Source: Thermoanaerobaculia bacterium (GTDB taxonomy: Bacteria > Acidobacteriota > Thermoanaerobaculia > Gp7-AA8). Taken from it: a stretch of DNA of 64,000 nucleotides. Of the stretch, positions 2,187 to 55,835 are shown in pieces. The stretch lies in the NCBI GenBank assembly GCA_035999335.1, contig DASYGV010000086.1, positions 66,991 to 130,990 of the forward strand. The letters run 5' to 3'. Numbering within the stretch: position 1 is the stretch's first letter; every line of letters begins with the position of its first letter. The position numbers and the translations under genes were made by a program. The notes under the pieces are model-generated. The model was not told the origin of the DNA and did not search any database. It saw only the letters and a program-made list of their open reading frames with translations.

Positions 2187-2948
2187 CTACTTGAGTCCCT
2201 GCTCCAGATGCTCGTACGCCTGCTGCAGGTTGTCGCTGCGCGACTTCACCTCGGCGAACGCATCGCGCCAGATCAGACCGACGCGCTGGATATTGCGCTC
2301 GCGGAGTCCGAACAGCACTTCGCGGAGCGCGTCGGCTTCGGCGCCCGAGAGGTCGGGACGCGCGACCTCGCGCTCGAGCAGCGACTGCGCGAGGCGGAGA
2401 TGCTCCTCATCACTCGGCGCTTGCGCGGTTGGCGCGGTCATGGCCGGGATCTTCATCGTCGTCGGACGGTCGGCCGTGATCTCACGCTGCAGGCCCGGCT
2501 GCGTGCCGCCCATGTCCACCGCGCCCGGGAGCTCCTTGAGCTGCGGACTGAACTTGCCCATCATGAAGAACAGCTCTTTCTCGTTGGCGAAGTTGCCGAC
2601 GAGACGCGCGCTCTTCGCGAGCTCGAGGTGCTCTGACTCCTGGAGCATGATGAACGCGCGGGCGCGGTCCTCGAGAGCGATGCGCTTGGCGTGGACCTTC
2701 CACGCGGTGAGCGTGCCCTGGATGAAGCACGCTTGGCCGGCGCGGATGCTCACCGCTTCGACCGTGACGTTCTCCTCGATGCGGATCGAGCCGTTGGTCG
2801 ACTCGATCTCGGAGTAAATCCCCGAGTTCTGGATGACGAGATTTCCTGGGGTTTTGATGGAGAGTTGTCCGTGCGCGTTGACCCGAATCTCGGTCCCGCG
2901 CGGGATGATCATCGTCGGGAAATTTGCCTGATCTGCGGCTGCACTCAT
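2187..2948 (-). CDS. bactofilin-like polymer-forming cytoskeletal protein with extended C-terminus
   Basis: The real start is MSAAADQ; the upstream Arg-rich part of the 619-aa ORF is discarded. Repetitive beta-helix-like segments (GTEIRVNAHGQLSIKT, GIYSEIESTNGSIRIEENVTVEA) are typical of the bactofilin DUF583 core. Its ATG overlaps the stop of the upstream M23 peptidase (ATGA). Confidence 0.5.
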   Translation of the reverse strand: MSAAADQANFPTMIIPRGTEIRVNAHGQLSIKTPGNLVIQNSGIYSEIESTNGSIRIEENVTVEAVSIRAGQACFIQGTLTAWKVHAKRIALEDRARAFIMLQESEHLELAKSARLVGNFANEKELFFMMGKFSPQLKELPGAVDMGGTQPGLQREITADRPTTMKIPAMTAPTAQAPSDEEHLRLAQSLLEREVARPDLSGAEADALREVLFGLRERNIQRVGLIWRDAFAEVKSRSDNLQQAYEHLEQGLK

Positions 2949-4000
2949 CACGACCTCCTCTTCCCACCCATAACACTCCCACCACTCGCAGCGCCCACGA
3001 AGGCCGACGGCAGCGGTTCGAAGTTCCTGTAGTCCTTGCTCGTGCGCGCGCGCATGAGCAGCAGGGCTTCGTTGCTCCACTGATAATTGAGGATGTAGAT
3101 GCGCGGATCGATCGGGACGTACGTCCCGGGCTGTTCGAGATCGCTGCGGATCTCGTAGTGCAGGTGAGCGTTCGTGCTCCAGCCGGTGTTGCCCACCGTG
3201 GCGATCACCTCGCCCTGCTGCACTCTCTGGCCAGCTCTGACTCGAACCGTGTCGCAGTGCGCGTAGATCGTGACGAAGCGGTCCGCGTGCTTGATCGTGA
3301 CGACGTTGCCGAAGCGCCACCAGGCGACGCTCTGCCGGATCGGATAGCGTCCCGCGAACGTGACCACGCCGTCGGCCGTCGCGTAGACCGCGGTGCCGGT
3401 CGGCGCGGAGAGGTCGAGTCCCTTGTGAAAGTCGGTCGCGCGCGTGAACGGCGAGACCCGATTGCCGAACGGCGAGGTCAGGACGAAGCGATCGTCGGGA
3501 ACCGGCAGGATCGACGGCGTGTGCCGGACGAGCTCGCGGTTCGCGGCCTCGTAGGCGGCCAGGACGTCGAGCTGCTGCTGCAGCCGGCGCATCGCGTTCT
3601 TCAGCGAGATTTCGCGGCGGCGGGCATCGTCGAGCGGCACGTCGGCGATGCGGTTGGGCGTGGAGAAACCGCCCTGGCCGAGGGTGCGGTCGAGACCGTA
3701 GACGGTGATGAGCTTCTCGACGCGGATGCGATGCTCTTCCAGGCTGCGCTCGAGGGAAGTCATCTGGACGACGTTCTCGCGCAATCGCTCGCGCTGGATG
3801 CCGCGCTCCTGGCGCTGCTGGTAGAGGTAGTTCGTCTTGTAAACGCGGCGGATGACCGTCGGCGCGGCGGCCATCGATCCGATCAAACCCGCGAGCACGA
3901 ACGACAGGACGATCAGTCCCACAACCACCCGGCGGCGGTCCAGAAAAAAGTACCGCACACGCCGGCGGATGTCGCTCGGATGGATCTGAATTTCGATCAT
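2948..4000 (-). CDS. M23-family metallopeptidase (LytM/peptidoglycan endopeptidase-like) with N-terminal TM and coiled-coil region
   Basis: HKGLDL...TIYAHCD...GNTGWSTNAHLHYEI are the canonical M23 Zn-binding motifs (HxxxD, HxH). An N-terminal TM helix is followed by a coiled coil. Confidence 0.85.
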   Translation of the reverse strand: MIEIQIHPSDIRRRVRYFFLDRRRVVVGLIVLSFVLAGLIGSMAAAPTVIRRVYKTNYLYQQRQERGIQRERLRENVVQMTSLERSLEEHRIRVEKLITVYGLDRTLGQGGFSTPNRIADVPLDDARRREISLKNAMRRLQQQLDVLAAYEAANRELVRHTPSILPVPDDRFVLTSPFGNRVSPFTRATDFHKGLDLSAPTGTAVYATADGVVTFAGRYPIRQSVAWWRFGNVVTIKHADRFVTIYAHCDTVRVRAGQRVQQGEVIATVGNTGWSTNAHLHYEIRSDLEQPGTYVPIDPRIYILNYQWSNEALLLMRARTSKDYRNFEPLPSAFVGAASGGSVMGGKRRS

Positions 4001-4074
4001 GGCACGAACCCGCGCGGGCCAACGCGCGGGTCAGGCAGTTTAGCACAGGGAAATGTGCACAGGAATCGGTGCAG

Positions 4075-4165
4075 CGGAGCGCCGGGCTTCCAGCCGGCCG
4101 CTACGCCGCCTTCCAGGCGGCCGGCAGGGATGCCGGCGGAGCGGCCGGCTGGAAGCCGGCGCGCC
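4075..4165. repeat. about 90-bp palindromic intergenic element (REP/MITE-like), copy 1
   Basis: Arms ggcttccagccggccgct ... agcggccggctggaagcc are reverse complements. A near-identical copy lies at 18680-18790. Confidence 0.7.
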
Positions 4166-4173
4166 TTTGTGCC

Positions 4174-4255
4174 TACTCGACAGGCACGGTGCGCTTGGTG
4201 AATCGCTTGACCACCAGCGGCAGCAGCGTGATCGCGAGCATCAGCGCGTTCATCG
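4174..4255 (-). pseudogene. orphan duplicate of a dedA-family gene 3' end (27 codons, MNALMLAITLLPLVVKRFTKRTVPVE*)
   Basis: About 85% nucleotide identity to 5445-5500, the true dedA 3' end (…CALMLAITLLPLAVKRFTKREAPVVE*). Its ATG overlaps the stop of the TIR gene (ATGA). Confidence 0.5.
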
Positions 4256-4912
4256 ATAGACCCTGGCCCTCTGTTCTTCGATCAACTGCAATTTGATGGC
4301 GGCGGCGTCGATTTCTGACGCAATCAGAGCGGCGATTGCCGGCTCAATGCCGGGTTCAACTACGCGTCGCCAGTATTTCTCGAGCCAGACTGGCGGCTCC
4401 ACCGGTTCCTCCAAGAGGACATACACCGACGCGTGCTGTGGATCGCCGTAATTGTGAATGACGGATGCGATGAACGCCTCTGCCTGGCAGATTGCGCTCC
4501 GCAGGCTATTCGATGAGATCAAGAACAGCACTGCTGAACATCGACGAATAGTGGCCTCGATTCGCTCACTGGCTCCTGGAAAATCGCGCTGGAAGCCTCG
4601 GATTTGATCGATGACGTCGGTGTCTCTGTTGTACGTGTGCTCCTCGGACTCGTCGTTGGGGGTGTAACGCCACGGTTCGAGGCCAGCCGCGCGAAACGCT
4701 TCTTCGAAGGCGCTCGCTCTCTCGAACGACTCACGAGGAAATGAGAGAAACACCCGTCGACCGAACTTCGGTCCCTCTAGGTAGTCGGCGCGTGCGGGGT
4801 CATCGGCTTTGTACAGGAATCCGTTGATCTTTCCGTCTGAATCTTTCCGTGTCGATGACCACACGAATCGGATTGCCTCGATCCAGCCCATAAGCCATCG
4901 TATTGGGTTCAC
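4252..4912 (-). CDS. TIR-domain protein
   Basis: RRVFLSFPRES (box1-like VFLSY), AVLFLISSNSLRSAICQAE and ASVYVLLEEP(V)E match the TIR / TIR-like flavodoxin-fold pattern. The gene lies in a lower-GC (about 55%) segment. Confidence 0.55.
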
Positions 4913-5016
4913 AACGGCAGCTTACGCGGGCCGCGTAGTTCCAAGCCACGTTCCTCCGCCTCGACGAAGCCAAACCCGGCGCCACGGAACCGAAATTGGC
5001 TGCAACCGAGCCAGAT

Positions 5017-5400
5017 TTAGCTCCGCAGATGCGATCGGCCGGGTCGAGAAAGCGATTGATCTCTTCGACCAAGAGAGCTTTCTCTTCGACCAAGAAAGCT
5101 TTCTCTTCGATCAAAGAGATCCTTCCCTTCGATCAAGAGATCTTTCTCTTCGACCAAGAGAGCCTTCCCTTCGACCAAGAGATCTTTCCCTTCGACCAAG
5201 AGATCTTTCCCTTCGATCAAGAGATCTTTCCCTTCGATCAAGAGATCTTTCTCTTCGGGCAAGAGATCTTTATCTTCGTCAAAGAGATCTTTCTCTTCGT
5301 CAAAGGGATCGATCTTTTCATCGAAGAGATCGATGGCTTCGTCTCGGACCCCGTTTTCTTCCTGAAAGAGGTAGGAAAGTTGATCTTTCTCTTCGGGCAC
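5017..5400 (-). CDS. acidic heptad-repeat protein (…LLIEGKD LLVEGKD… x about 10), hypothetical
   Basis: The minus-strand frame through the 21-bp array gives a clean (EGKDLLV)n heptad repeat. It is co-oriented with, and immediately upstream of, the TIR gene, and starts 22 bp after the dedA stop. The plus-strand frames (FDQEIFP / RDLSLRS repeats) are less protein-like. Coding status is uncertain. Confidence 0.3.
   Translation of the reverse strand: MPEEKDQLSYLFQEENGVRDEAIDLFDEKIDPFDEEKDLFDEDKDLLPEEKDLLIEGKDLLIEGKDLLVEGKDLLVEGKALLVEEKDLLIEGKDLFDRRESFLGRRESSLGRRDQSLSRPGRSHLRS
5067..5340. repeat. 21-bp tandem repeat array, about 13 copies (consensus ttcgaccaagagatctttccc)
   Basis: Directly visible head-to-tail units with point variants. 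The period is 21 bp, which equals 7 codons and about two helical turns. Confidence 0.9.
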
Positions 5401-5421
5401 GAGATCGACGAGGGTGGCCGC

Positions 5422-6111
5422 TTATTCGACGACGGGCGCTTCGCGTTTCGTGAATCGCTTGACGGCCAGCGGGAGAAGCGTAATCGCGAGCATGAGCGCG
5501 CACACGATCAGCAGCCGCTTCGCGGCGTCCCCCTCGGTCATCGAGCCATTGAACAGCGCGTCCGCGGAGTAAGCGAAGACGAAGATCGACGGGATCACGC
5601 CGACGAACGTCGACAAGAAGAAGTCGCGCACGCGCACGCCCGCGACACCCGCGCCGTAGTTGAGGACCGCGAACGGAATGCCGGGGATGAAGCGGAGCGC
5701 GAGGAGCGAGCCGAAGCTCGCGTGATCGACCTGCTTCGCGACCGCGCGGCCGACGCGGCCGAATTTCTCGAGCATCCCCTCCCCCACGAAACGCCCGAGG
5801 TAGAACGACGCGAGCGCGCCGAGGATGCCGCCGACGATCGAGTAGACGCTGCCGAGGAGCCATCCCCAGATGAAGCCCGCCGCCAGGATGAACAGCGACG
5901 CCGGCAAGGCGAACACGCACGCGAGCACGAACGCGCCGATGAAGATCGCCGGGCCGTACCAGACGCCGCGCAAATGCTCGACGAACAGGCGCACGTTTTC
6001 GCGCGTGATGTGCTCGCGCGCAGGCGAGAAATAGATCGCCACGACGGCTGCCGCGAGCAGCACGAAGATCGCGATCTTGACGAGCGTGCGGCGCGACAAC
6101 GTTCGCAACAT
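5422..6111 (-). CDS. DedA / SNARE-associated (TVP38/TMEM64) family membrane protein
   Basis: Start MLRTLS (upstream Arg-rich extension trimmed). It is multi-TM, with a GxxxG-rich G(I/V)PxxxxNYxAG DedA signature in ALRFIPGIPFAVLNYGAGVAGV. Confidence 0.8.
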   Translation of the reverse strand: MLRTLSRRTLVKIAIFVLLAAAVVAIYFSPAREHITRENVRLFVEHLRGVWYGPAIFIGAFVLACVFALPASLFILAAGFIWGWLLGSVYSIVGGILGALASFYLGRFVGEGMLEKFGRVGRAVAKQVDHASFGSLLALRFIPGIPFAVLNYGAGVAGVRVRDFFLSTFVGVIPSIFVFAYSADALFNGSMTEGDAAKRLLIVCALMLAITLLPLAVKRFTKREAPVVE

Positions 6112-6361: not shown

Positions 6362-7540
<1,179 letters not shown>

Positions 7541-7595
7541 GTTTGTAGTGCTCCTTTTGCCGCGTCTCCAAACGCGGCGCGGGGGGATGATATTC

Positions 7596-7690
7596 GGGCT
7601 GAAGAGTCGCAAAGTCGCAAAGTCTCAAAGTCGCAAAGAGGGCGGGTCCGACGGCCTTTGCGACTTTGCGACTTTGAGACTTTGCGACTC
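7596..7690. repeat. 35-bp-stem palindrome built from tandem 8-mers (gtcgcaaa x4 / tttgcgac x4)
   Basis: gagtcgcaaagtcgcaaagtctcaaagtcgcaaag - loop - ctttgcgactttgcgactttgagactttgcgactc. It overlaps the last codons of the CPBP protease gene (…ESQSLKVAKSQRP…). Confidence 0.85.
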
Positions 7691-8452
7691 CGCCGGCTCC
7701 CAACGCCGCAGCCACAGGATGCCGGCGACCTCGGCCACCGTCATCCAGATGCTCCCTTCGATGCCGAACTCCCCTCCGGTCAACCACCACGGGCCTTGGC
7801 CGCGCTCGACGAAGACCGTGGCCATCGCGTCGTAGCCGCTGACCTCGTGTCCGAGGATCGGACCGGACATCACGTTCCACGCGAGATGCAGCCCGATCGG
7901 GAGCCACAGACGCCCGTACTTCTCGTACGCGAGCCCAAGCAGAACGCCGCCGAGGAACACGTTCGTGAGGCCGATCCACGACACGGCCGCGTTGCCCGCG
8001 TGAAGCGCCGCGAAGACGAGGGCGACGAACAACAGTGCGAAGCCGCGGTGCCAGCGATGGAGTTTCTGGAATGCATAGCCGCGGAACAACAACTCCTCGT
8101 GGACCGCCGCCGGGAGAAAGACCATGAAGATCTCGAGCCACGGGAATCCAGCGCCGCGCTCGTGCGAAAGGTCCGTCGAGAGGATGACTAGGGCCGCGCA
8201 CATGCTGATCAGGACGACTCCGAACGCGGTGCCGTAGAGAAACTCCGGCACGGCGAGACGTGGCGAGACGAAGAGGCCGAGCGGCCAACGTCCGCGATCC
8301 CAGATCGCGACGGTTGCCGCGGTGGCGACGCCGACGGAGAGGAGTGCCATCCAATGGACGAACGGAAAACGAAGCCACGACAAAACGATGAGTGTGGCAA
8401 CATAGAAACAAACGAACAATGCAAGCGGTGCCACAACGCGGTCGAGCGCGGC
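7625..8452 (-). CDS. CPBP-family intramembrane glutamic endopeptidase (CAAX protease-like)
   Basis: EELLFRG, FxxxH and HxxxN motifs in a multi-TM protein. The start is uncertain; a GTG near 8452 is proposed after trimming an Arg-rich extension. Confidence 0.7.
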   Translation of the reverse strand, partial: AALDRVVAPLALFVCFYVATLIVLSWLRFPFVHWMALLSVGVATAATVAIWDRGRWPLGLFVSPRLAVPEFLYGTAFGVVLISMCAALVILSTDLSHERGAGFPWLEIFMVFLPAAVHEELLFRGYAFQKLHRWHRGFALLFVALVFAALHAGNAAVSWIGLTNVFLGGVLLGLAYEKYGRLWLPIGLHLAWNVMSGPILGHEVSGYDAMATVFVERGQGPWWLTGGEFGIEGSIWMTVAEVAGILWLRRWEPAESQSLKVAKSQRPSDPPSLRL

Positions 8453-8476
8453 CACGCGCTGCTTGAAGGAGGCCGC

Positions 8477-8953
8477 ATGAACAGGATCGCCGCCGACGTC
8501 GCCGCGCTGCTGTTGCGCGTCGTCGCGGGATTGATCTTCCTTCCCCACGGCTGGTCGAAGATCGCCGGCGAGGGAGGCTCCACCGCGTTCGCCGCCGGAT
8601 TGGCCGAGGGCTACGGCATTCCGCTGTTCCTCGGACACCTCGCGGCGTACGTCGAGGTCATCGGCTCCGTCCTGCTCCTCCTCGGATTGCTCACCCGTCT
8701 CGATGCGCTCCTCCTGGCCGGCACGATGTTCGTGGCGGCCTTCGTGGTCCAGCTTCCCGATGCGTTGTTCGAGGTCCCGCCGAATGCTATCAAGGCTTTC
8801 GCGGTCATTCGCGGGATCGAGACCCCGCTCGCGATGTTCGCGATCTGCTGCGCGCTCGTGCTCACCGGCGGCGGGCGCTTCTCGCTCGATTCCGTGCTGC
8901 GGAATCGGTTCGGCAAAAAGAAAACGGCGGCCGAAGCCGCCGCTGTCACGTAG
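8477..8953 (+). CDS. DoxX-family membrane protein
   Basis: Start MNRIAADVAALLLRVVAGLIFLPHGWSKI. This is the typical DoxX pattern (LR..LG..F...G..K; E..G..LLLLGL.TR). Confidence 0.75.
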   Translation: MNRIAADVAALLLRVVAGLIFLPHGWSKIAGEGGSTAFAAGLAEGYGIPLFLGHLAAYVEVIGSVLLLLGLLTRLDALLLAGTMFVAAFVVQLPDALFEVPPNAIKAFAVIRGIETPLAMFAICCALVLTGGGRFSLDSVLRNRFGKKKTAAEAAAVT

Positions 8954-8975: not shown

Positions 8976-9413
8976 TTACTGCCCGATCGCCGCGGCCGCG
9001 CCGCCCGCCATCGGGTCTTCGACGATGATGCCGATGTTCTTCGCGCCGCTGGCGCGGGCGAGATCGAGGAACTTCATCGTCGCCTCGTAGTCGACATCGC
9101 GTCCGCCCGAGAAGAACACCATCTTGGAAGAGTTCCCGCGAAGGATCTCGCGGATCCGGTTGGGGAACTGCTCCATCGTCATCTCTTCCTTGTTGATCAG
9201 CACACGCGGACCCGCGATGAGACGCAGGACGATCTGGTCCTGCACCGCGGACGGCGGGATGCCGGGCGGCGCTTTGGGCGGAACCTTCACGAGATAGCCC
9301 ATCTGAATGACCGGCGTGAGGACCATGAAGATGATCAGGAGCACGAGAACAACGTCCACCAACGGTGTGACGTTGATCTCCGACCGCATCGAACCACTGC
9401 CACCTACTTGCAT
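8976..9413 (-). CDS. exbD: biopolymer transport protein ExbD/TolR
   Basis: Diagnostic ExbD N-terminus (INVTPLVDVVLVLLIIFMV); about 145 aa. Confidence 0.85.
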   Translation of the reverse strand: MQVGGSGSMRSEINVTPLVDVVLVLLIIFMVLTPVIQMGYLVKVPPKAPPGIPPSAVQDQIVLRLIAGPRVLINKEEMTMEQFPNRIREILRGNSSKMVFFSGGRDVDYEATMKFLDLARASGAKNIGIIVEDPMAGGAAAAIGQ

Positions 9414-18670: not shown

Positions 18671-19746
18671 AGGCCCCGCGGAGCGCCGGCTTCCAGCCGG
18701 CCGCTCCGCCGCCTTCCAGGCGGCCCGGTTCTCGCGACAACCGCCGGCAAGATGCCGGCGTAGCGGCCGGCTGGAAGCCGGCGCTCCGCGGGGCTGCCGC
18801 GGTCCTGTTCACCATCCTTCTCCTCGCCCTCTCCGGCGCCGCGTTCGGCCACTCCCCTCGCGAGCTCCTCAGCATCCTCATCACCGGCTCGGTCGGAAGC
18901 ACGTTCGCGCTGCAGGGCACGCTCCTCAAGTCCGTGCCGCTGCTCCTCACGGGACTGAGCGTCGTCATCGCCTTCCGCGCTGGCGTGTGGAACATCGGCG
19001 GCGAGGGACAGTTCATCGTCGGCGCGCTCGCCGCGCTGCTCGCGTCGCGTTTCGGACTCGTCCCATCGCTTCTCGCGGCGATGCTCGCCGGCGCCGCGTG
19101 GGCGTCGATCGCATCGCTGATGCGTCTCTGGCGCAATGCGCCCGAGGTACTGACGACGATCCTTCTCAACTTCATTGCCATCCATCTCCTCGGGTGGTGC
19201 GTGAATGGCCCATTGCGCGAACGCACCGCGATGTATCCGCAAACCGATGTCGCGCTTGCGACGCTGCCGCGACTCGGCGGCCTGTTCAGCGGACTGCATA
19301 TGGGCATCCTTCTCGCCGTTCTTGCGAGTGTCGGCGCGTGGTGGCTGCTGTATCGAACGAACGAAGGACTGCGTCTCCGCGCGACCGGCTTCAACTCTTC
19401 CGCGGCGAAGTGGGCGGGTGTGAACGTGCGGGCGCAGCTCGTGCGGGCGATGGCAATTTCCGGCGCCGCCGCCGGACTCGCAGGGGGCATCGAGCTCCTC
19501 GGCGTCACGAATCGACTGTTCGAGCGCTTCGCCGCCGGCTACGGCTACTCCGGCATCGCAGTGGCACTGCTGGCGCAACTCCATCCGCTCGCAACGATCG
19601 GCTCGGCGTTCTTTTTCGGCGCGCTCGTCACCGGCGCGGGCGAGCTGCAACGCACCGCGAACATCTCCGCGGCGGTTGCGACGTTGGGCCAGGCTGTCGT
19701 GATTCTCGTGCTCATTGGGTTCGAATATGCTCGATCTCGTCGTTAG
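18667..19746 (+). CDS. ABC transporter permease (BMP-system)
   Basis: GTG at 18667 overlaps the ATPase stop (GTGA). The multi-TM permease region runs from about 18800. The first about 40 codons are encoded by the REP-like element, so the true start could be an internal non-ATG codon. Confidence 0.7.
   Translation: MKAPRSAGFQPAAPPPSRRPGSRDNRRQDAGVAAGWKPALRGAAAVLFTILLLALSGAAFGHSPRELLSILITGSVGSTFALQGTLLKSVPLLLTGLSVVIAFRAGVWNIGGEGQFIVGALAALLASRFGLVPSLLAAMLAGAAWASIASLMRLWRNAPEVLTTILLNFIAIHLLGWCVNGPLRERTAMYPQTDVALATLPRLGGLFSGLHMGILLAVLASVGAWWLLYRTNEGLRLRATGFNSSAAKWAGVNVRAQLVRAMAISGAAAGLAGGIELLGVTNRLFERFAAGYGYSGIAVALLAQLHPLATIGSAFFFGALVTGAGELQRTANISAAVATLGQAVVILVLIGFEYARSRR
18680..18790. repeat. 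about 90-110-bp palindromic element (REP/MITE-like), copy 2, lying inside the 5' coding region of the permease gene
   Basis: Same arms as 4075-4165 (cttccagccggccgc…gcggccggctggaag), with a 26-bp extra insert in the loop. Confidence 0.7.
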
Positions 19747-42627: not shown

Positions 42628-43698
42628 CTATCTCCGATCGCTGACCGAGTCTTCGTCTTCCGACGCGGCAAGCACCTGTGCCGCAAAATGCCGCACGGCG
42701 TCGTTGTCGTCGCGTTCCGTGACCGAGCGGAGCACGGGCAGGGCGGGCGCACAGTAGTCTCTGAGGCCGTGCTTGCTCCAGAGCGAGAAGGCGAAGGCGG
42801 CGCTGCGGCGGACGGTGGGCTCGGCGTCGGTGAGCAACTCGATCATCCGCGGGACCAGGGAGGTGGCATCGACGCCTTTCCGCGGCAGGGTCGCCACGGC
42901 GATCGCCGCAATCTTGCGCACCTCGGCCTCGGCGTCCTGAAGGAGCGTCCCCAGCGAGCTCGTGAGCGAGGCCTCGGCGCGCTCGACGCTGATGAGGGCT
43001 TCGCAGGCGGCTGCGCGTACACGCATGTCTCCGGAGGCAAGCAGAGTCTGGACGCCCGGCCAATCACCGGTGCGGCCGTGCTGGTAAGTGAGGGCTCCGC
43101 TCGCGAGCGCGCGGACGTCGGGGTCGCTCTCGGAGAGTAGAGCGGCAAGCGCTGTAGCCGCCGAGGCCAGATCGATCCCTCGCTTTCCCGCTTCGGCCAT
43201 GCCTCTGACGGCGTTCTTGCGCACCGCCTCATCGCTCGACGACAGGAGGGGAATAGCCTCCGGCAGGTCCTGTCTCAGCCGCTGCGTGACGAAGAACTCC
43301 TGTGCCTGTTTCCAGGCGGCAACTCCTTCCTCGGTGACCATGCCGCGTTCCGCGTTCTCCGCGAAGATGTTGACCTTGGTCTGGAGCACCGAGAGCAGGT
43401 CGTCCGTCACCCGAGCCCCGCGATCGACGAGGAATTGCGCGAGGTCGAAATGGCCGTGGCTGGCCGCGTTCGCGAGCGGCGTGAGCCCGCCGCCGCTGCC
43501 TTTGTTCTCGATGTCGGCACCCGCCTCGAGCAGACGCTTCACGACCTCCAAGTGGCCGAACAGCGCCGCCCCGTTCAAGGACGTATTGTTGTATTCGTCC
43601 TTGACGTCCACGTTCGCTCCCGCCTCGAGAGCCCGCGAAACGGCGTCCAGGTTGCCCTCGGAGGCGGCCTTCAGCAGATCAGCATCGGCGGTTGTCAT
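42628..43698 (-). CDS. ankyrin-repeat + HEAT/PBS-lyase-repeat protein
   Basis: Three ANK repeats (GNLDAVSRALEAGANVDVKD…G.TPL..A…GH…V..LL..GA) are followed by HEAT-like repeats (VRRSAAFAF, VRAAACEAL, VRKNAVRGM). Confidence 0.75.
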   Translation of the reverse strand: MTTADADLLKAASEGNLDAVSRALEAGANVDVKDEYNNTSLNGAALFGHLEVVKRLLEAGADIENKGSGGGLTPLANAASHGHFDLAQFLVDRGARVTDDLLSVLQTKVNIFAENAERGMVTEEGVAAWKQAQEFFVTQRLRQDLPEAIPLLSSSDEAVRKNAVRGMAEAGKRGIDLASAATALAALLSESDPDVRALASGALTYQHGRTGDWPGVQTLLASGDMRVRAAACEALISVERAEASLTSSLGTLLQDAEAEVRKIAAIAVATLPRKGVDATSLVPRMIELLTDAEPTVRRSAAFAFSLWSKHGLRDYCAPALPVLRSVTERDDNDAVRHFAAQVLAASEDEDSVSDRR

Positions 43699-43706
43699 CG
43701 TTCACC

Positions 43707-44108
43707 TCATGAGCTCACGGTTGGTCCAGTGTCACGATGCGTCAAGGTCAAGATGAGTGCTACGAGGAAGACTAGTCCGCCGAAGACCTTGATCGCAAAG
43801 ACCCACGTTGTGGGAATTGGAGCAGGGTCCGACTGGCCAGTACGCATGGCGTACCAATGGTACGAAATGCTGCTATACGCCATGCCGCAGGCGAAACCCC
43901 ATGCCGCGGCGAGCACGGACCGAGGGCCGCTGCTGGAGGTCTTTCGCGTCACCCATGCGCCAGCGACCAAGAACCCTCCTATGAGGAAGTCGTCGAGGAA
44001 CGCGGGAGGATTGACCCACCAGGTGCCCCAACGACGAACGATCTCGGCGAGCGGCGTGAGCACGCCGAAGAGATAGGCCAGTCTGCGGCTAATGGCGAGC
44101 TGATACAT
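43707..44108 (-). CDS. hypothetical 4-TM membrane protein
   Basis: Four hydrophobic helices, Trp-rich; no recognised family. Confidence 0.4.
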   Translation of the reverse strand: MYQLAISRRLAYLFGVLTPLAEIVRRWGTWWVNPPAFLDDFLIGGFLVAGAWVTRKTSSSGPRSVLAAAWGFACGMAYSSISYHWYAMRTGQSDPAPIPTTWVFAIKVFGGLVFLVALILTLTHRDTGPTVSS

Positions 44109-44127
44109 TCTTTAGATCCTAAACGAC

Positions 44128-44484
44128 TCATTGCCGGAGAATCTTCTCGATCGCTTTTCCTTTTGCGAGCTCATCGATCAACTTGTCTAAATAGCGTAGT
44201 TTTTGCATCAGCGGATCTTCGATTTTTTCCACGCGAATACCACACACTACGCCTTTGATCAGAGAACTATTTGGATGAATGGCTGGTGCTTGCGCAAAAA
44301 AGGTCTCGAGATCGTTTTCCTGTTCGATTTGCTGCTGTAATCCCGCTCGGTCATAGCCAGTCAACCAGCAAATGATTCGGTCGACTTCTTCTTTCGTACG
44401 ATTCTTGTTTTCCGCTTTCTGAACATAGAGCGGATAGACCCTTGCAAACTTCATCGCGAAAATGTGATGTCTAGGCATCGTCAT
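44128..44484 (-). CDS. DUF2200-family protein
   Basis: [43 protein letters not shown] matches the conserved DUF2200 N-terminus. GC about 48%, far below the background. Confidence 0.6.
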
Positions 44485-44518
44485 TCCTCCGGTGGGTCGA
44501 GGTCCGACACGCATGGAC

Positions 44519-44911
44519 TCAATCAGCCCAATGATCGAACGGCCGATCCGTGAGCGGATCTGAACCGAAACGCAAGATGTGCCCGTCCGGATCTTCAACG
44601 TGGATTTCCAGCGCCCACGGATAATTGCGCGGCGGCTGCCGGACGCGGGCGCCCGACTGCAGATACTCCCGATAAAGGTCGTCTACGTCCTCGACTCCGA
44701 TCCACGCCCACGTCCCCGGCTGTCCCTGAGCACCTCGGCAGAGATAAATGGAGGCGCCGTCGCGTGACACCGAAGTGAAGTCGTCTGAGCCCCATTCCGC
44801 GTTCACGAACCCAAGGACTCGAGTGTAGTAGAGAACGCTGGCACCCATATCGGACACGCGCAGAATGGGCTCAGCGTGTTCAAATCTCGTTCGTCCGTGA
44901 TCGGTTGCCAT
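44519..44911 (-). CDS. VOC (glyoxalase/bleomycin-resistance) family protein
   Basis: Start [26 protein letters not shown] and [16 protein letters not shown] modules. Confidence 0.6.
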
Positions 44912-44949
44912 GCCAAACCTCCAACAAAAGGTGTTGAGCCGTCGCGACT

Positions 44950-45060
44950 GTGGCCTAACGTCCCGCGGTTCACCGGCGCGAACCGCGCGCCGAGACCGTG
45001 GCTCTTGGAACACAGTAAAGCAGCGGTTCGCGTCCGGTGCAACCGCTTAGTTGAGCGCGC
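44950..45060. repeat. about 100-bp two-hairpin element, copy A (cgcggttcaccggcgcgaaccgcg … gcagcggttcgcgtccggtgcaaccgct)
   Basis: A near-identical copy B lies at 45480-45590. The two bracket the LRR gene as direct repeats. Confidence 0.75.
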
Positions 45061-45065
45061 ACTCG

Positions 45066-45473
45066 CTAGACGATCACCACCACACCAGGAATCGCCTTGC
45101 TTAGCGCGTGAACACCAGACTCGGTGACAGCTGTATACGCGAGTGACACAAATCGCAGACTCACAGCACCAGCAAGGGCTCGCAGGCCAGCGTCCGTGAC
45201 GGCGGTGTCTTCCAGCCACAGCTCCTCGAGCGCGGGCAGAGCCGCAACCTTCAGGAGGGAACGATCTGTGATCGACGTGCTATCCAGGTCGAGGCATCGC
45301 AGCACCATCAGCTGCGGAAGCGCGGCGAGTTCGTCATCCCCAACGTTAGAGCCTTCGAGACTCAACGCCTGGGTATCAGGAGGAATCGCGGAGAGGCTGT
45401 CCGACGACACGCTCTCATGGCGGACGAAGTACGGAGTGTCTTTCAGCGTGAAGATGAGACGACTGTCGTGCAT
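45066..45473 (-). CDS. leucine-rich-repeat (LRR) protein
   Basis: Repeated L..L.L..T.ITD..L units (LRCLDLDSTSITDRSLLKVAALPALEELWLEDTAVTDAGLRAL). Confidence 0.55.
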   Translation of the reverse strand: MHDSRLIFTLKDTPYFVRHESVSSDSLSAIPPDTQALSLEGSNVGDDELAALPQLMVLRCLDLDSTSITDRSLLKVAALPALEELWLEDTAVTDAGLRALAGAVSLRFVSLAYTAVTESGVHALSKAIPGVVVIV

Positions 45474-45479
45474 GCGCGC

Positions 45480-45590
45480 CCAACGTTCCTGCGGTTCATC
45501 CGCGCGAACCGCGCGGAAGAAGTGTAAACCTTGCGACGCATGAAGGCAGCGGTTCGCGTCGGGTGCAACCGCTCAGTTAGACGGCGACGG
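45480..45590. repeat. about 100-bp two-hairpin element, copy B
   Basis: gcggttcatccgcgcgaaccgcgcgg … gcagcggttcgcgtcgggtgcaaccgct; a direct repeat of copy A. Confidence 0.75.
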
Positions 45591-45921
45591 CCGGAAGCCA
45601 CCCCATGCCGCCGCACTCGCACTGCACGTTCGCGGGCGCGGGCTTACCAGCGATCAATGGGCGACCCGTTCCATCACACGTTGAACAAGTCGCACAGTCC
45701 GACGTTCGAACTGGAGCAAGCCAGTGCAGTTGGGGATATCGCCGATGACCGGCGGCGAACGCGAGATGGCGGATTCCTGCCCTCCAGCGGCCGGCTTCCG
45801 CGTGGTGAACATTCCGTGGAATATCACCTGGGCGTATGCCTGCACGATCAAAGATCCCGCCCGGGACGACGTTCACGATGAAGAGCAACTTGCTGCCCGG
45901 AAACGCTGGATGCGCGCCCAC
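45577..45921 (-). CDS. hypothetical Cys-rich protein (PDZ-like N-terminus; CxxCxxC…CxC zinc-ribbon-like C-terminus)
   Basis: VVPGGIFDRAGIRPGDI followed by CATCSTCDGTG…CECGG. Overlapping alternative ORFs exist, so this is a weak call. Confidence 0.25.
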   Translation of the reverse strand: MGAHPAFPGSKLLFIVNVVPGGIFDRAGIRPGDIPRNVHHAEAGRWRAGIRHLAFAAGHRRYPQLHWLAPVRTSDCATCSTCDGTGRPLIAGKPAPANVQCECGGMGWLPAVAV

Positions 45922-46119
45922 TTCTGCATGGAGCCGAGATCCCGTTCAAGTGCCGGCGCGATTGTCTTGACGAATGCCAATCCATGACCGTCGGCATGAA
46001 GGTCAATAGGAGTACGAGTGGAAAGATCACTCCGAAGAAGCTTCCGACGATCACCCACTGCGCTCGTGAAAGACGTATGAGGCCGTTCATTCCGCCGTCC
46101 AATGGCCACGTGGACGGCG

Positions 46120-46725
46120 CTACAACCCGGCTTCGCAAACCGTTACAGCCTCTTCGTCGGTCATTTGCCGAGGATCCCTACCGTCACAGATATTGGCGCG
46201 AGTCTTCGGAGGCAAGGAGCGTAGTGTGCTGATTGTCCGTGCCGAATCCTCTTCAAGCAACCAGTCGAACGCCGGCCACGCCACCTCTCCAAGTTCGCCG
46301 TCGGTGAGCAGACACAGTTCGATGAATTCACGGTGGTAGCGTCCATGACGTTGAACGAGACGGGCAGCGGTGTCAAACATGTCATATATGGTTTCGGAGA
46401 CCGCGCGATGCTCGCAGACATCACGCGCATACGTGAGTTCGTAGATACGTTGCAACTCGATTCGTGTACGAGGAAGCGACCGAAGGTATCTCAACTCTTC
46501 GCGCCATGTCGGATTCAAGGACAAGCGTTGGTGTCGATAAAGCGCAACGATCCCGGGATTCATCGCCCAAATCCGGTTGAACGCGGCATCAAGCGCAGCG
46601 ACCGTCGATGCGTCACCGAGCGCCAAGATGGCTTCGTGAGGGATCGACGAGCCTGGACAGTCCGCCGCGATTGGCGAGGCAATGACAAGAGTAACGAAGA
46701 GCGAACAGGCCAGTCGATGTGTCAT
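46120..46725 (-). CDS. secreted hypothetical protein
   Basis: Start MTHRLACSLFVTLVIASPIAA (signal peptide). Lower GC (about 55%). Confidence 0.45.
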   Translation of the reverse strand: MTHRLACSLFVTLVIASPIAADCPGSSIPHEAILALGDASTVAALDAAFNRIWAMNPGIVALYRHQRLSLNPTWREELRYLRSLPRTRIELQRIYELTYARDVCEHRAVSETIYDMFDTAARLVQRHGRYHREFIELCLLTDGELGEVAWPAFDWLLEEDSARTISTLRSLPPKTRANICDGRDPRQMTDEEAVTVCEAGL

Positions 46726-46878
46726 GGAATCCTTGATTGCGCCTGCGCCGCCCAACTCCGTCATGAGCCGATTAGACGTACCGCTTGAAATCGCTAAACA
46801 CGGAACGCGATTGCTGCGCTTCGTACGTGCTCAACTGACGGCACACGCTCATCTTACCTCCGGTGATGGCTCTCCGCG

Positions 46879-48426
46879 TCACCCCCGGCTGAAGCCGAGG
46901 CTGAAGCCGGGGGCTAGGAGAACTTCTTCCGCGGCGCGCACGCCGTGGTGGAGCGCTTCCTCGAACAGCGCGACTCCGCTGAGGTCCGTGTTTGCGAAGT
47001 GAATTGCGCCGTGCGGTTCGGACGCGCGGCGGCGCGCGTCGCTCCAGATGAAGCCAGGGCGCGGGCGGATCATCGCGTGGCCCCAGCGCATGACGTCGAC
47101 GCGTTCGGTGAGCGCGCGGATGTCGGGATGCGCGCGCGACAGGTCCGCGAGCGCGACCTCCGCCCATGCGTCGCGGCCCGCGGCGAGGAGCCGCTCGCGC
47201 TCGCGGCGCACGTCGCTGCCGCAGAGCGCGTAGTAATACGTCAGCACCGTCGGTCCGCGGTCGATGCCGCGCTGGTGCGTCGAGACGACGTAGCCGAGGG
47301 AGGGGCTGTCGTAGAGGACGTTGTCCCACGCGAGCGGAAATCCGTGCGACACCGGACGATCGCGCAACGCGAGATTCGCCACCATCCACGAGCCGTAGGT
47401 GAAGTCATTCGACGTCTCGCGTGTCGGAATCGCGTGCCGCGCAACGAACTGCGGTCCCGCGAAGATCACCTGTCTGGCGTGCACACCCACTGCCTCGTCG
47501 CCATGCACCGCGATCACGTCGCCGTTCGGAGCGATGTTCGTGACGAGCCAACCCGTGCGCGATTGTGCGAATTGGGCGAGATGCGCGACCACGCGCCCGT
47601 TCCCTTCTGGCCAGGTGATGAAAGCACGCTGCTCGCGTGAGGCGAAGTAGAAGACCGCCGCCCAGGCGCTCGTGTCGCCGAGGAGCGCGCCGTAGTCGTC
47701 GCGCGTCGCGTATTCGACGAGCCAGCGCAATCGCGGTGAGGTGAAGCCGCGCGCGTCCATCCATTCGTTCATGGAGATGCGATCGAGCGCCGTCACCTCC
47801 GCGTCGTCCGAACAGAGCGCGACCGGGATGTCGAACGCGCGGCGTCCGCGCGCATCGCGCCACGCCGACCATCGCGCGATCTCGGCCTCGAACGCACGCA
47901 GCTGGCGCAGGTCTTCGTGCGACGCGCCCGCGTTCAGGTAGAGACCCTCGTACCAGCGCCCGCGATAGAACACGCGCTCCTGAGGATCGCGGCAGAGGAA
48001 CTGCTCGGCGATCTCGCCGTTCTCGAGCACGCCCATTTCATCGAGCAACCGGATCAGCACGCGATTCTCGGGCGATGGCGCGACGATGTAGTGAGCGCCC
48101 CACGGGTACGACGTACCGCTGCGCGAAGTGCCTCCCAGTGCGGGCTCGAGCTCGAAGAGCACGACGTCGCGAACGCCCGCGTGGTGGAGATGCCACGCAG
48201 CGGCGAGTCCGGCGATGCCGCCACCGGCGATGACGACGTCGTGCGTCTCCCACCGCGACGGTTGCGGAATCACGCCGCCGCGCAGGCGATGTCCGATGCG
48301 ATCCGAAGCGCCGACCAACTCGCCCGGCGGCAGCGCGATCTCGCGCTCGCGACATGCCAGCGCCGCGAACGGCGCGCCGAGGAACGCCGTCAGCACGTCG
48401 CGGCGGCTCAGCTCCACTTGCGCCAC
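46879..48426 (-). CDS. FAD-dependent oxidoreductase (amine-oxidase/protoporphyrinogen-oxidase-like) with Tat-type signal
   Basis: [18 protein letters not shown] twin-Arg signal. [18 protein letters not shown]-binding GxGxxG. Confidence 0.75.
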
Positions 48427-55128: not shown

Positions 55129-55835
55129 AGAAGTTGCAACTCGCATCCGTCCGCAAAGACCTCCGTACCGCCGCCAACCCCGAACACGCCAAAGTCGCAC
55201 AATCCTTCTTCAAAACCGCCCCCGGCCAATATGGCGAAGGCGATCGCTTTCTCGGCATTCGCGTTCCTGTATTACGAACGTTCGTGCGAAAACACGAAAC
55301 GCTTTCATTGCAAGACATTGAGACCCTTCTCGACTCTCCATGGCACGAGGAGCGGATCGTCGCGTTGCTGATTCTCGTCCGACGCTATGAGCGCGGCGAC
55401 GATACCGATCGCGCTGCCATTTACGACCTCTATCTGCGCAAGACGGAACGCATCAATAACTGGGATCTGGTCGACTGCTCCGCGCCGCAGATCGTCGGCG
55501 CGCATCTGCGCGATCGCGACCGCGCCCCTCTGTACGCTCTCGCCAAATCGAGCTCATTGTGGGAACGGCGGATTGCGATGATCGCGACGCAGCACTTCAT
55601 CCGCCGAGGCGATTTCCGCGACGCGCTGGCCATCGCCGCGCTCCTGCTCGACGACCGCCACGACCTCATTCACAAAGCGGCCGGCTGGATGCTCCGCGAG
55701 GTCGGGAATCGGGATCGAGAAGCCGAGGAGAGGTTCCTGCGGAAACACGCCGCGCGCATGCCGCGCACCATGCTCCGTTACGCAATCGAGAAATTTCCCG
55801 CCACATTGCGCAGGACGTATCTCGAAATACGTTGA
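55127..55835 (+). CDS. DNA alkylation repair enzyme (AlkD/AlkC-like HEAT-repeat glycosylase family)
   Basis: GTG start overlapping the previous stop (GTGA). …WHEERIVALLIL…NNWDLVD…LWERRIAMIATQHFIRRG matches the AlkD-family HEAT-like repeats. Confidence 0.65.

Follow-up and report, generated by a model that had tools for sequence, protein, structure and literature searches.

A lower-GC insertion carrying a TIR-domain gene at the 3' end of dedA in a Thermoanaerobaculia genome

The subject of this analysis is a stretch of 64,000 nucleotides (nt) from the genome of a Thermoanaerobaculia bacterium of the Acidobacteriota (GenBank assembly GCA_035999335.1, contig DASYGV010000086.1, positions 66,991 to 130,990), which is referred to below as the window. 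Within this window, the 3' end of dedA, a gene for a membrane protein of the DedA family, is followed by a short segment of lower GC content that contains a 21-nt tandem repeat array and a gene for a TIR-domain protein. Beyond this segment the end of dedA is found a second time, and only then is the upstream region of the neighbouring M23 peptidase gene reached. In the order of transcription, the locus consists of the following features:

6362-7612, minus strand: thiolase gene, followed by a small open reading frame (ORF) and then by dedA
5422-6111, minus strand: gene for the DedA/VTT-family membrane protein of 229 amino acids (aa), the target gene (Pfam VTT_dom, E 1.2e-24; the JGI call is also of 229 aa and of the same family)
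5422-5499, minus strand: in-gene dedA tail, the last 25 codons plus stop, a direct repeat with 4173-4248; probably the imported replacement copy
5017-5400, minus strand: 21-nt tandem array with a 127-aa acidic (E/G)KDLL(V/I)E repeat ORF of uncertain coding status
4913-5016, minus strand: spacer from the repeat ORF to the TIR gene, by direct reading
4250-4912, minus strand: gene for a stand-alone TIR-domain protein of 220 aa with a GTG start (Pfam TIR_2)
4173-4253, minus strand: orphan dedA tail, a 26-codon ORF; probably the native end of dedA, which the insertion separated from the gene
4073-4165, no strand assigned: palindromic element resembling repetitive extragenic palindromic (REP) sequences, a small insertion of its own, located between the orphan tail and the upstream block of the M23 peptidase gene
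2948-4072, minus strand: M23 peptidase gene (2948-4000; Pfam Peptidase_M23, E 7e-32) with its conserved upstream block, the right-hand core flank

The locus was also seen in other samples. Four contigs, two from JGI metagenomes and two from Logan runs, match it with 99.5-100% identity across both junctions, and one of them, the 8.6-kb JGI contig L048, covers dedA, the inserted segment, the orphan tail and the M23 peptidase gene with no mismatch and one gap. The locus is therefore not an assembly artefact, a worry that had been raised in a first-pass annotation made from the sequence alone, and which is answered by the agreement of these four independent assemblies. The statements of that annotation on the sequence itself all hold, with small corrections of coordinates. 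For the TIR gene, the NCBI and JGI calls start at M8 and give a product of 213 aa. The spacer upstream of this gene contains two weak terminator-like hairpins on the minus strand (5013-4997 and 4994-4975), and a scan of 3900-5700 for sigma-70 promoters did not find any.

The GC content across 4200-5550 amounts to 0.45-0.59 in windows of 300 nt, as compared to 0.64-0.70 in the flanks. The lower GC content that had been noticed by eye was thus real, while the value of about 70% given for the flanks was slightly high, the actual one being about 65%. The GC content at third codon positions (GC3) is 0.65 in the TIR gene and 0.48 in the repeat ORF versus 0.87-0.91 in dedA, the M23 peptidase gene and the thiolase gene. 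The approximately 1.17 kb between the two copies of the dedA tail is made up of the 21-nt array with its ORF and the TIR gene; no other ORF, and no recombinase gene, was found in it. The genes for homologues of the TIR protein have a GC content of 0.51-0.55 within loci of 0.52-0.65. The piece of about 1.2 kb is foreign DNA of lower GC content inserted at the 3' end of dedA.

That this is an insertion follows from a comparison with related genomes. Species-representative genomes were scanned with the DedA protein, which yielded 31 loci, all of them from metagenome-assembled genomes of Thermoanaerobaculia or other Acidobacteriota. The dedA orthologues of all 31 loci are 45-80% identical, and the order thiolase-dedA-M23 is common to all of them. 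In 13 of the 23 related loci with both flanks visible, the site is empty, with only 40-100 nt between the dedA stop codon and the start of the M23 peptidase gene. The spacer of these empty sites is a conserved block that reads CTGCACCGATTCCTGTGCA...TGTGCTAMACT...GACCCGCGCG, and the block upstream of the M23 peptidase gene is kept in all relatives, whatever occupies the gap. In the window it reads CTGCACCGATTCCTGTGCAC...TGTGCTAAACT...GACCCGCGCG and comes after the orphan fragment, with the palindrome in between. As dedA runs straight to the M23 peptidase gene in 13 relatives, the arrangement in the window must be the result of an insertion, which agrees with the view taken in the first-pass annotation.

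The interval between dedA and the M23 peptidase gene is occupied in 14 other relatives, by differing cargo of 0.2 to more than 6 kb. Four relatives have inserts of 230-440 nt in the gap, and those of L022 and L016 are visibly palindromic or repetitive. The gene cargo comprises a VapBC-type MazE/PIN pair (L006), a 535-aa Trypsin_2 protease and an alpha/beta hydrolase (L025), an amidohydrolase, a secreted protein and a SpoIIAA-like protein on a 3-kb insert (L002), MgtE (L013), a 955-aa CHRD/SpaA/IPTL-CTERM surface protein (L014), a response regulator with a GWxTD protein (L019), a 1059-aa TPR-CHAT protein with an ORF resembling a subtilisin-type protease (L001), a DAO-Rieske oxidoreductase with RecD2 (L010), and an M4 peptidase with an amidase (L020). 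The GC content of the cargo in relatives is 0.61-0.68, so that only the cargo in the window is compositionally foreign. The TIR gene was found in none of the relatives' dedA loci, and there was no integrase or other mobile-element gene among the 20 cargo ORFs from their occupied sites that were scanned with Pfam. The differing cargo and the absence of an integrase among the scanned ORFs show the dedA/M23 gap to be a variable hotspot of a general kind rather than a defence island. Accessory and defence genes are known to accumulate in variable hotspots that lie between conserved core genes. The present interval resembles them in being empty in some relatives and differently filled in others, but most of its cargo is of a non-defence type, and neither an integrase nor a tRNA gene marks the site. 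It also differs from them in that three genomes show a duplication of the tail of the flanking gene, which is not a general feature of hotspots.

In the window, this duplication is a direct repeat of 4178-4248 and 5430-5500 that extends over 71 nt without gaps at 82% identity (by blastn-short, 88% over 51 nt with an E-value of 9e-12 within the locus). The longest run of identical nucleotides is 14 nt. The duplicate had previously been placed at 4174-4255 with an identity of about 85%; the duplication itself stands, with the lower identity given here and with an orphan ORF at 4173-4253. The orphan ORF reads MNALMLAITLLPLVVKRFTKRTVPVE up to its stop codon, and the in-gene tail ends on ALMLAITLLPLAVKRFTKREAPVVE. 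The stop codon of the TIR gene (TGA, 4250-4252) overlaps the ATG of the orphan (4251-4253), so that the ATGA noted earlier is confirmed. This ATG was created at the junction, and translational coupling would yield a small hydrophobic peptide; the ATG and the ORF are probably fortuitous.

The two tails show 8 differences in the first 57 aligned nt, and 7 of these 8 are at codon position 3 (p-value of 0.0026). Of the codon changes, 6 are synonymous and one is non-synonymous (Ala/Val). This bias indicates that each tail served as a functional end of dedA while evolving in a lineage of its own, one of them consequently having been imported. Decay of the orphan in situ is rejected for the same reason, namely that the differences are biased towards synonymous ones. 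As to which tail was imported, codons ending in A or T make up 6 of the 25 codons of the in-gene tail, but only 14 of the 204 in the rest of dedA (Fisher p-value of 0.012), and 2 of 24 in the orphan tail, which is host-like in this respect. Moreover, the orphan is the copy that is joined to the native downstream sequence, that is the M23 upstream block past the REP-like element. On these two grounds, the in-gene tail is assigned to the insert, and the orphan is taken to be the displaced native end. The inserted segment therefore probably arrived with its own dedA tail. The evidence for this direction is moderate, with the codon-ending bias as the only usable signal for telling the native from the imported tail. 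A sliding-window scan of identity over the whole of dedA against 7 relatives did not reveal a breakpoint.

Two further genomes show duplications at the same site. In L025, the last approximately 57 nt of dedA together with the first approximately 30 nt of the next gene, encoding an alpha/beta hydrolase, are duplicated around the Trypsin_2 gene (6640-6725 and 8405-8490); with each gene read in its own frame, 8 of the 10 differences affect codon position 3. Neither dedA nor the hydrolase gene, with its signal-peptide start MNRWLAAL, is disrupted; the gene for the 535-aa protease lies on the opposite strand, and a truncated start (MKRWLASLALR followed by a stop) has been left behind. In L002, two fragments of the dedA 3' region are located inside the insert, at 8027-8052 and 9339-9380. 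One of these is 26 nt long and 96% identical, and the other corresponds to the last 24 nt plus about 18 nt past the stop codon. They may mark successive insertions at one site. The starts of the duplicates lie at about -78 (window), -57 (L025) and -24 (L002) nt from the stop codon, and their ends at +0, +30 and +18, respectively. The differing boundaries, together with the absence of a recombinase, make a single site-specific system less likely. Recombination via a homologous patch on the incoming DNA would be more likely, either as the Campbell-type integration of a circle or as the homology-anchored illegitimate recombination of a linear fragment.

The product of the TIR gene matches Pfam TIR_2 (PF13676) over residues 54-173 with 28.9 bits at a cut-off of 28 (E 1.7e-6). 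Although this match is marginal, it bears out the family assignment for which a search of this kind had been proposed, and four relatives of the protein (P0018, P0019, P0022 and P0027) score 29.8-35.1 bits with the same model. The protein consists of a core at about residues 52-185, a conserved N-terminal segment of about 50 aa with the motif RKD-x-GK-x-GFLY-x-DDP, and a long C-terminal helix (189-219). An AlphaFold model was built from an alignment of 14 sequences. Its mean predicted local distance difference test (pLDDT) score is 71, with 82-93 in the core, and it displays the alternation of strands and helices that is typical of TIR domains, followed by the C-terminal helix of 30 residues. 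The best match of this model in Foldseek was the RUN1 TIR domain, and the predicted fold is accordingly the flavodoxin-like alpha/beta fold of TIR domains.

Across 13 family members, with identities as low as 28%, the residues S57, S133, S139, C142 and E145 do not vary. In TIR proteins that cleave NAD+ (NADases), such as SARM1, AbTir, plant TIRs, ThsB and SpbK, the glutamate in helix alphaC is catalytic. The family profile aligns 'aiCeleaf' with 'WCQYELY' of the Toll-like receptors (TLRs), which places E145 at the position of the conserved alphaC glutamate of TIR domains; E145 would therefore be the counterpart of the catalytic residue of the NADases. Both the glutamate within 'C/W-x-x-E' in alphaC and a serine after betaA are thus present, and the suggestion to look for a TIR-like fold and a candidate catalytic glutamate led to a positive result in both respects.

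The family is very small, with about 20 clusters. Only 14 relatives were found among 5.8 billion proteins, all of about 220 aa and, apart from one identical protein, 41-57% identical. A profile search of 1.84 billion cluster representatives gave 32 matches with E-values of 0.001 or less, 19 of which had E-values of 1e-10 or less, and a second scan of metagenomes added only two further loci, one of which was already known. The longer members P0022 and P0024 have no fused domain besides TIR_2. The homologues are found in varied surroundings. One directly follows a gene for a caspase-like Peptidase_C14 protein (L035:1209-2641), another follows a row of genes for a 545-aa TIR protein, a protein without assigned function, TPR-S and patatin (L045:71-5506), and a third is located two genes after a gene for a ThsB_TIR/TIR_2 protein (L046:124-2926). 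The homologue in L037 lies beside HTH/TPR and trypsin-endonuclease genes, and that in L032 beside a GGACT-like gene. In both L035 and L044 a glyoxalase gene, the same in the two loci, comes after the homologue; in L035 the core genes for CoaE and Rho are also found there. The upstream neighbours are mutually unrelated, and there is no conserved partner. These neighbourhoods are the company kept by conflict genes, and those in L035, L045 and L046 might be multi-gene conflict loci of an uncharacterised kind. A role of the TIR protein in defence or abortive infection appears plausible and can reasonably be inferred from its family and from the genes that lie near its homologues.

We compared the protein with known TIR-based systems. 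SpbK, a single-gene abortive-infection protein of Bacillus subtilis, is a TIR NADase that becomes active upon being clustered by a phage portal protein; its 94-residue N-terminal four-helix bundle docks on the portal, which leads to the formation of TIR filaments (PMC12847820). According to PMC11984713, SpbK is carried on the mobile element ICEBs1. The TIR protein of the window has no detectable sequence relationship to SpbK beyond the generic TIR fold and, instead of the four-helix bundle that serves as portal sensor, it has an N-terminus of about 50 residues that was predicted with low confidence, plus the 30-residue C-terminal helix. Its likeness to SpbK is therefore a functional analogy only. 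For Thoeris, neither a PADLOC Thoeris model nor Pfam ThsB_TIR matched the protein, and no ThsA (SIR2 or Macro/SLOG) was present among the JGI gene calls of L048; the homologue that lies near a ThsB_TIR-like gene in L046 is again not accompanied by ThsA. The TIR-SAVED and TIR-STING proteins of the cyclic-oligonucleotide-based antiphage signalling system (CBASS) and type III CRISPR, as well as the TIR-APAZ proteins of SPARTA that act with a prokaryotic Argonaute (pAgo), also provide no match, because the 220-aa protein consists of a TIR domain only and no gene of such a type is adjacent in L048. Thus, the protein is neither a Thoeris component nor a SAVED, STING or APAZ fusion, nor is it SpbK itself. 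This is in line with the earlier view that the locus is no obvious member of a named system, as PADLOC gave no convincing match and NCBIfam gave none.

The tandem array upstream of the TIR gene comprises 12.9 copies of the 21-nt unit at 5060-5331 according to Tandem Repeats Finder, with degenerate units up to 5406 that come as close as 22 nt to the dedA stop codon. On the coding strand the unit reads G(A/G)GAAAGATCTCTTG(A/G)TCGAA, which translates as (E/G)KDLL(I/V)E. All assemblies share an extra T at about position 5113, by which the last three units are moved to another frame. In different samples, the array contains 1, 3 or 4 copies of the unit GGGAAAGATCTCTTGATCGAA, corresponding to ORFs of 127, 141 and 148 aa (5017-5400 in the window, L048:3450-3875 and L049:3429-3875), while the flanks are 99.5-100% identical. 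These differences between assemblies indicate that the array is a variable-number repeat in the population. Both Logan contigs end inside it. A single-sequence AlphaFold 2 model of the ORF product shows a long helix at residues 48-117 with a pLDDT of about 90. The RNA of the array is self-complementary and folds better than shuffled sequences (z -4.1), but this is due to the adjacency of purine-rich codons (GAA, GAG, AAA) and pyrimidine-rich Leu codons (CTC, TTG) and therefore gives no verdict on whether the array is coding or non-coding. The chances that the ORF is translated are about even. Sub-threshold matches of the repeat and of the palindrome to microRNA hairpins in Rfam were the only hits to known RNAs in the region and were rejected as chance.

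We consider it probable, and the best explanation of these observations, that the locus arose by a recombinational insertion that brought its own dedA tail together with a stand-alone module of the TIR NADase type. A foreign piece of about 1.25 kb would have recombined into the last 80 nt of dedA; the incoming dedA-like tail would now complete dedA (5422-5499), and the native tail would be stranded as an 81-nt fragment (4173-4253) beside the M23 promoter. With its Ser/Cys/Glu motif intact, the 220-aa protein would be an NAD+-cleaving enzyme that, by analogy to SpbK, stays inactive until it is triggered to self-associate, perhaps via the conserved N-terminal segment and the C-terminal helix as candidate sensing or assembly parts. 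Once active, it would deplete NAD+ or generate a product derived from ADP-ribose, upon which growth would stop. The TIR gene, the only gene of the insert with good support, would then be a one-gene module resembling SpbK, of the abortive-infection or toxin type. The 21-nt array would be a hypervariable repeat brought along by the insert; it may encode an acidic helical peptide or serve as leader or promoter DNA, but a conserved partner it is not.

It should be noted that several observations weigh against this explanation. The codon-ending signal for a foreign tail is modest. L001 and L006, the closest relatives, have exactly the same ending KREAPVVE as the in-gene tail, which equally fits a tail that is native or one that came from a close relative. 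An attempt to identify the native tail by its similarity to 30 relatives over the last 84 nt did not discriminate between the copies (identities of 0.51-0.77 with the in-gene tail and of 0.51-0.74 with the orphan). Neither a recombinase nor an excision product nor a sequence of the donor could be found for the inserted segment, so that its route of entry can be suggested only by inference. As regards the cargo, the Pfam match is barely above the cut-off, the AlphaFold model is only of moderate confidence (the N-terminal 37 residues, with a predicted helix at 3-21, have pLDDT values below 50), and many TIR domains are scaffolds rather than enzymes. PADLOC returned only a weak match of 30 residues to the TIR part of SAVED_TIR (17.4 bits), no sequence match was obtained in NCBIfam or the Protein Data Bank, and no relative was found in phage, plasmid or IMG/VR collections. 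Lastly, the cargo of the hotspot in relatives is mostly non-defence, and the neighbourhood in the window is of a housekeeping nature (thiolase, Rce1-like, DoxX and PMT_2 according to the JGI gene calls of L048).

The direct repeats at dedA call to mind a known type of integration. Phage 21 integrates into the 3' end of icd in the same way as prophage e14 does. In E. coli, e14 leaves a fragment at icd, the pseudogene icdC; this prophage measures 15 kb and has its own site-specific recombination system (PMC13626634). As in e14, the insert at dedA provides the target gene with a substitute 3' end, so that this gene remains intact, and the original end, now displaced, is retained at the other junction as an orphaned direct repeat. 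Conservative or synonymous changes account for most of the differences between the two ends. However, the dedA insert measures 1.2 kb and has no recombinase, and the duplicated segments at this hotspot have differing boundaries in other genomes. Neither an integrase or excisionase nor an identical att core was detected among the ORFs of the 1.17 kb, in the comparison of the two tails or in the cargo ORFs of the relatives that were scanned. Readings of the segment as an integron cassette or a Tn7-like insertion were dropped since there is no attC-like structure at its end, no transposase and no short target-site duplication; the fact that the duplication consists of coding DNA from the target gene also disfavours them.

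It is possible, but rather unlikely, that the segment is what is left of a larger site-specific element, such as a prophage, an integrative and conjugative element (ICE) or an island, that had used the dedA tail as attB and a dedA-like attP and that has lost its integrase by an internal deletion. Only the ends of this element would then be left, with the repeat array by attL and the TIR gene as a 'moron' by attR. The duplicated tail, the synonymous divergence and the foreign-looking in-gene tail are the signature of such elements (PMC13626634), and the foreign GC content fits as well. We nevertheless regard the remnant as the less convincing explanation, given that no integrase or mobile-element gene is present in the 1.17 kb and no integrase was detected in the cargo of the relatives that was scanned. 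The boundaries of the duplicates in the window, L025 and L002 and the short longest identical run of 14 nt argue against a common att core. Furthermore, the TIR stop codon is located within 3 nt of one junction and the array starts 22 nt past the dedA stop codon, which is remarkably tidy for a random deletion, and the collections of phages, plasmids and viruses mentioned above hold no relative of the TIR protein. Defence genes are often found at the ends of mobile elements, which counts in favour of a remnant, as does the presence of SpbK on ICEBs1.

Another explanation, which we regard as unlikely, concerns the cargo rather than its route of entry. The TIR protein may be a silent scaffold, a signalling adaptor, or an NAD or nucleotide enzyme with a housekeeping or inter-bacterial role, and the whole segment may be a neutral passenger. 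Relatives have a mixed cargo at this site (MgtE, amidohydrolase, alpha/beta hydrolase, CHRD/SpaA, response regulator, VapBC), the genes around the locus are housekeeping genes, the homologues in L035 and L044 precede the same glyoxalase gene and that in L035 is close to core genes, as would be the case in ordinary chromosomal contexts, and there is no convincing match to a PADLOC model. However, the invariance of the candidate catalytic Glu and of the Ser residues down to 28% identity is expected of an enzyme, several homologues are located beside caspase-like, patatin or other TIR genes, and the patchy distribution, foreign composition and tiny size of the family fit an accessory conflict gene.

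The first-pass annotation had proposed that the TIR protein and the low-complexity repeat protein form a two-gene defence cassette. In such a system, the acidic heptad-repeat protein would be a sensor, inhibitor or antitoxin of the TIR effector, and its number of repeats might vary as a switch or as a determinant of specificity. The repeat ORF is co-oriented with the TIR gene, directly upstream of it and on the same insert, and it is called by the JGI gene callers (141 and 148 aa). In addition, the period of 21 nt holds the frame through 13 units, including the degenerate N-terminal ones, the predicted helix is long and confident, and the number of copies differs between samples. A small acidic protein encoded upstream of a toxin would also resemble the layout of type II toxin-antitoxin systems. 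These observations are outweighed by others. The repeat ORF has no homologue with an E-value of 1e-3 or less among the 5.8 billion proteins, and no match in Pfam, PADLOC or NCBIfam. The loci with a TIR homologue that were inspected (six distinct proteins on 11 contigs) contain neither such an array nor a shared upstream gene. The repeat was absent from 38 loci, a two-unit pattern was not found in JGI metagenome contigs, and in IMG/VR there were three single, non-tandem chance matches but no array. The insertion of 1 nt that shifts the last three units is present in all assemblies. The repeat is also open in two frames of the plus strand, so that openness is a property of the repeat itself; the GC3 of 0.48 is unlike that of the TIR gene (0.65); and the differences between units are not concentrated at codon position 3 (E/G and D/A at position 2, V/I at position 1). 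A two-gene system is therefore quite unlikely, and the same holds for the repeat ORF being a required partner of the TIR protein. Thus, insertion, TIR identity and the lack of a named system remain from the earlier interpretation, but the pairing of the two genes does not. New with respect to that interpretation are the variable hotspot with its mostly non-defence cargo, the probable import of one dedA tail, and the palindrome as an insertion in its own right.

More far-reaching, and in our view improbable, is the idea that the window, L025 and L002 are three cases of an undescribed, recombinase-free movement of single-gene cassettes between related genomes. Each cassette would carry a patch of 45-90 nt of the recipient's gene boundary, as a Campbell-style circle or a homology-anchored linear fragment, and its insertion would keep both flanking genes intact and leave a diverged duplicate behind. 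The cargo in the window would then be a minimal two-part immune module, in which the hypervariable 21-nt repeat tunes the expression of a new TIR NADase or encodes its variable helical partner. Finally, an in-situ tandem duplication, an ancestral arrangement or an assembly artefact, any of which would do away with an acquisition, is barely credible: short-read assemblies of metagenome-assembled genomes can be mis-joined at repeats and the Logan contigs break inside the array, but four independent assemblies agree across both junctions, 13 relatives have an empty site, the synonymous-biased differences between the copies are not expected of an unselected in-situ orphan, and the GC3 of the insert is far from that of the host.

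Next to the orphan tail, the first-pass annotation had noticed a REP-like palindrome. This was substantiated by the inverted repeat at 4085-4157, of which the two arms (4085-4114 and 4128-4157) are 30 nt long and 90% complementary, and by a second full copy elsewhere in the window (18688-18779). The element is about 95-125 nt long with the terminal arms CGCGGAGCGCCGGCTTCCAGCCGGCCGC and GCGGCCGGCTGGAAGCCGGCGCTCCGCG; the length of the loop differs between copies, and a partial or degenerate arm is located near 55677. A 17-mer of the element occurs 5 times in the window versus 0.05 times expected. In view of the second copy, the palindrome behaves as a dispersed REP-like element, and as an imperfect palindrome with several intergenic copies it has the features of REP-like elements or of miniature inverted-repeat transposable elements (MITEs). 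It is absent from the intergenic regions of relatives with an empty site and is an insertion separate from that of the TIR gene. A different hairpin was seen just upstream of the thiolase gene (7606-7689), where two inverted arrays of 8-mers, (AGTCGCAA)x4 at 7605-7638 and (TTGCGACT)x4 at 7656-7689, flank an 18-nt GC-rich loop and form a long, perfect-looking hairpin. This could be a terminator or another type of REP.

A second stretch of lower GC content (0.55-0.61 versus about 0.65) is located at 44000-47000 of the window. It contains genes for a DUF2200 protein (44128-44598) and a glyoxalase-family protein (44519-45013), as well as an ORF of 214 aa without a Pfam match (46120-46764), and it adjoins a gene for an ankyrin/HEAT-repeat protein (42628-43698). 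This stretch may be another acquired patch.

Altogether, the locus combines a rare, defence-like TIR protein with an e14-like, tail-replacing insertion that has no recombinase, and as such it is a fairly ordinary acquisition within known kinds. Neither the TIR lineage nor the tail-replacing insertion overturns current understanding. As a naturally occurring case from a non-model organism, the locus illustrates cleanly how an insertion can bring a substitute tail and so repair its target gene. The duplication of tails at this hotspot on three occasions, with differing cargo and no recombinase, is useful for understanding how accessory genes enter at the boundaries of core genes in uncultured bacteria. 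If the TIR protein is an active NADase that depends on a trigger, it would add a compact stand-alone TIR lineage of 220 aa from soil Acidobacteriota to the single-gene TIR defences, and its distinctive N- and C-terminal segments could then reveal a new mode of activation.

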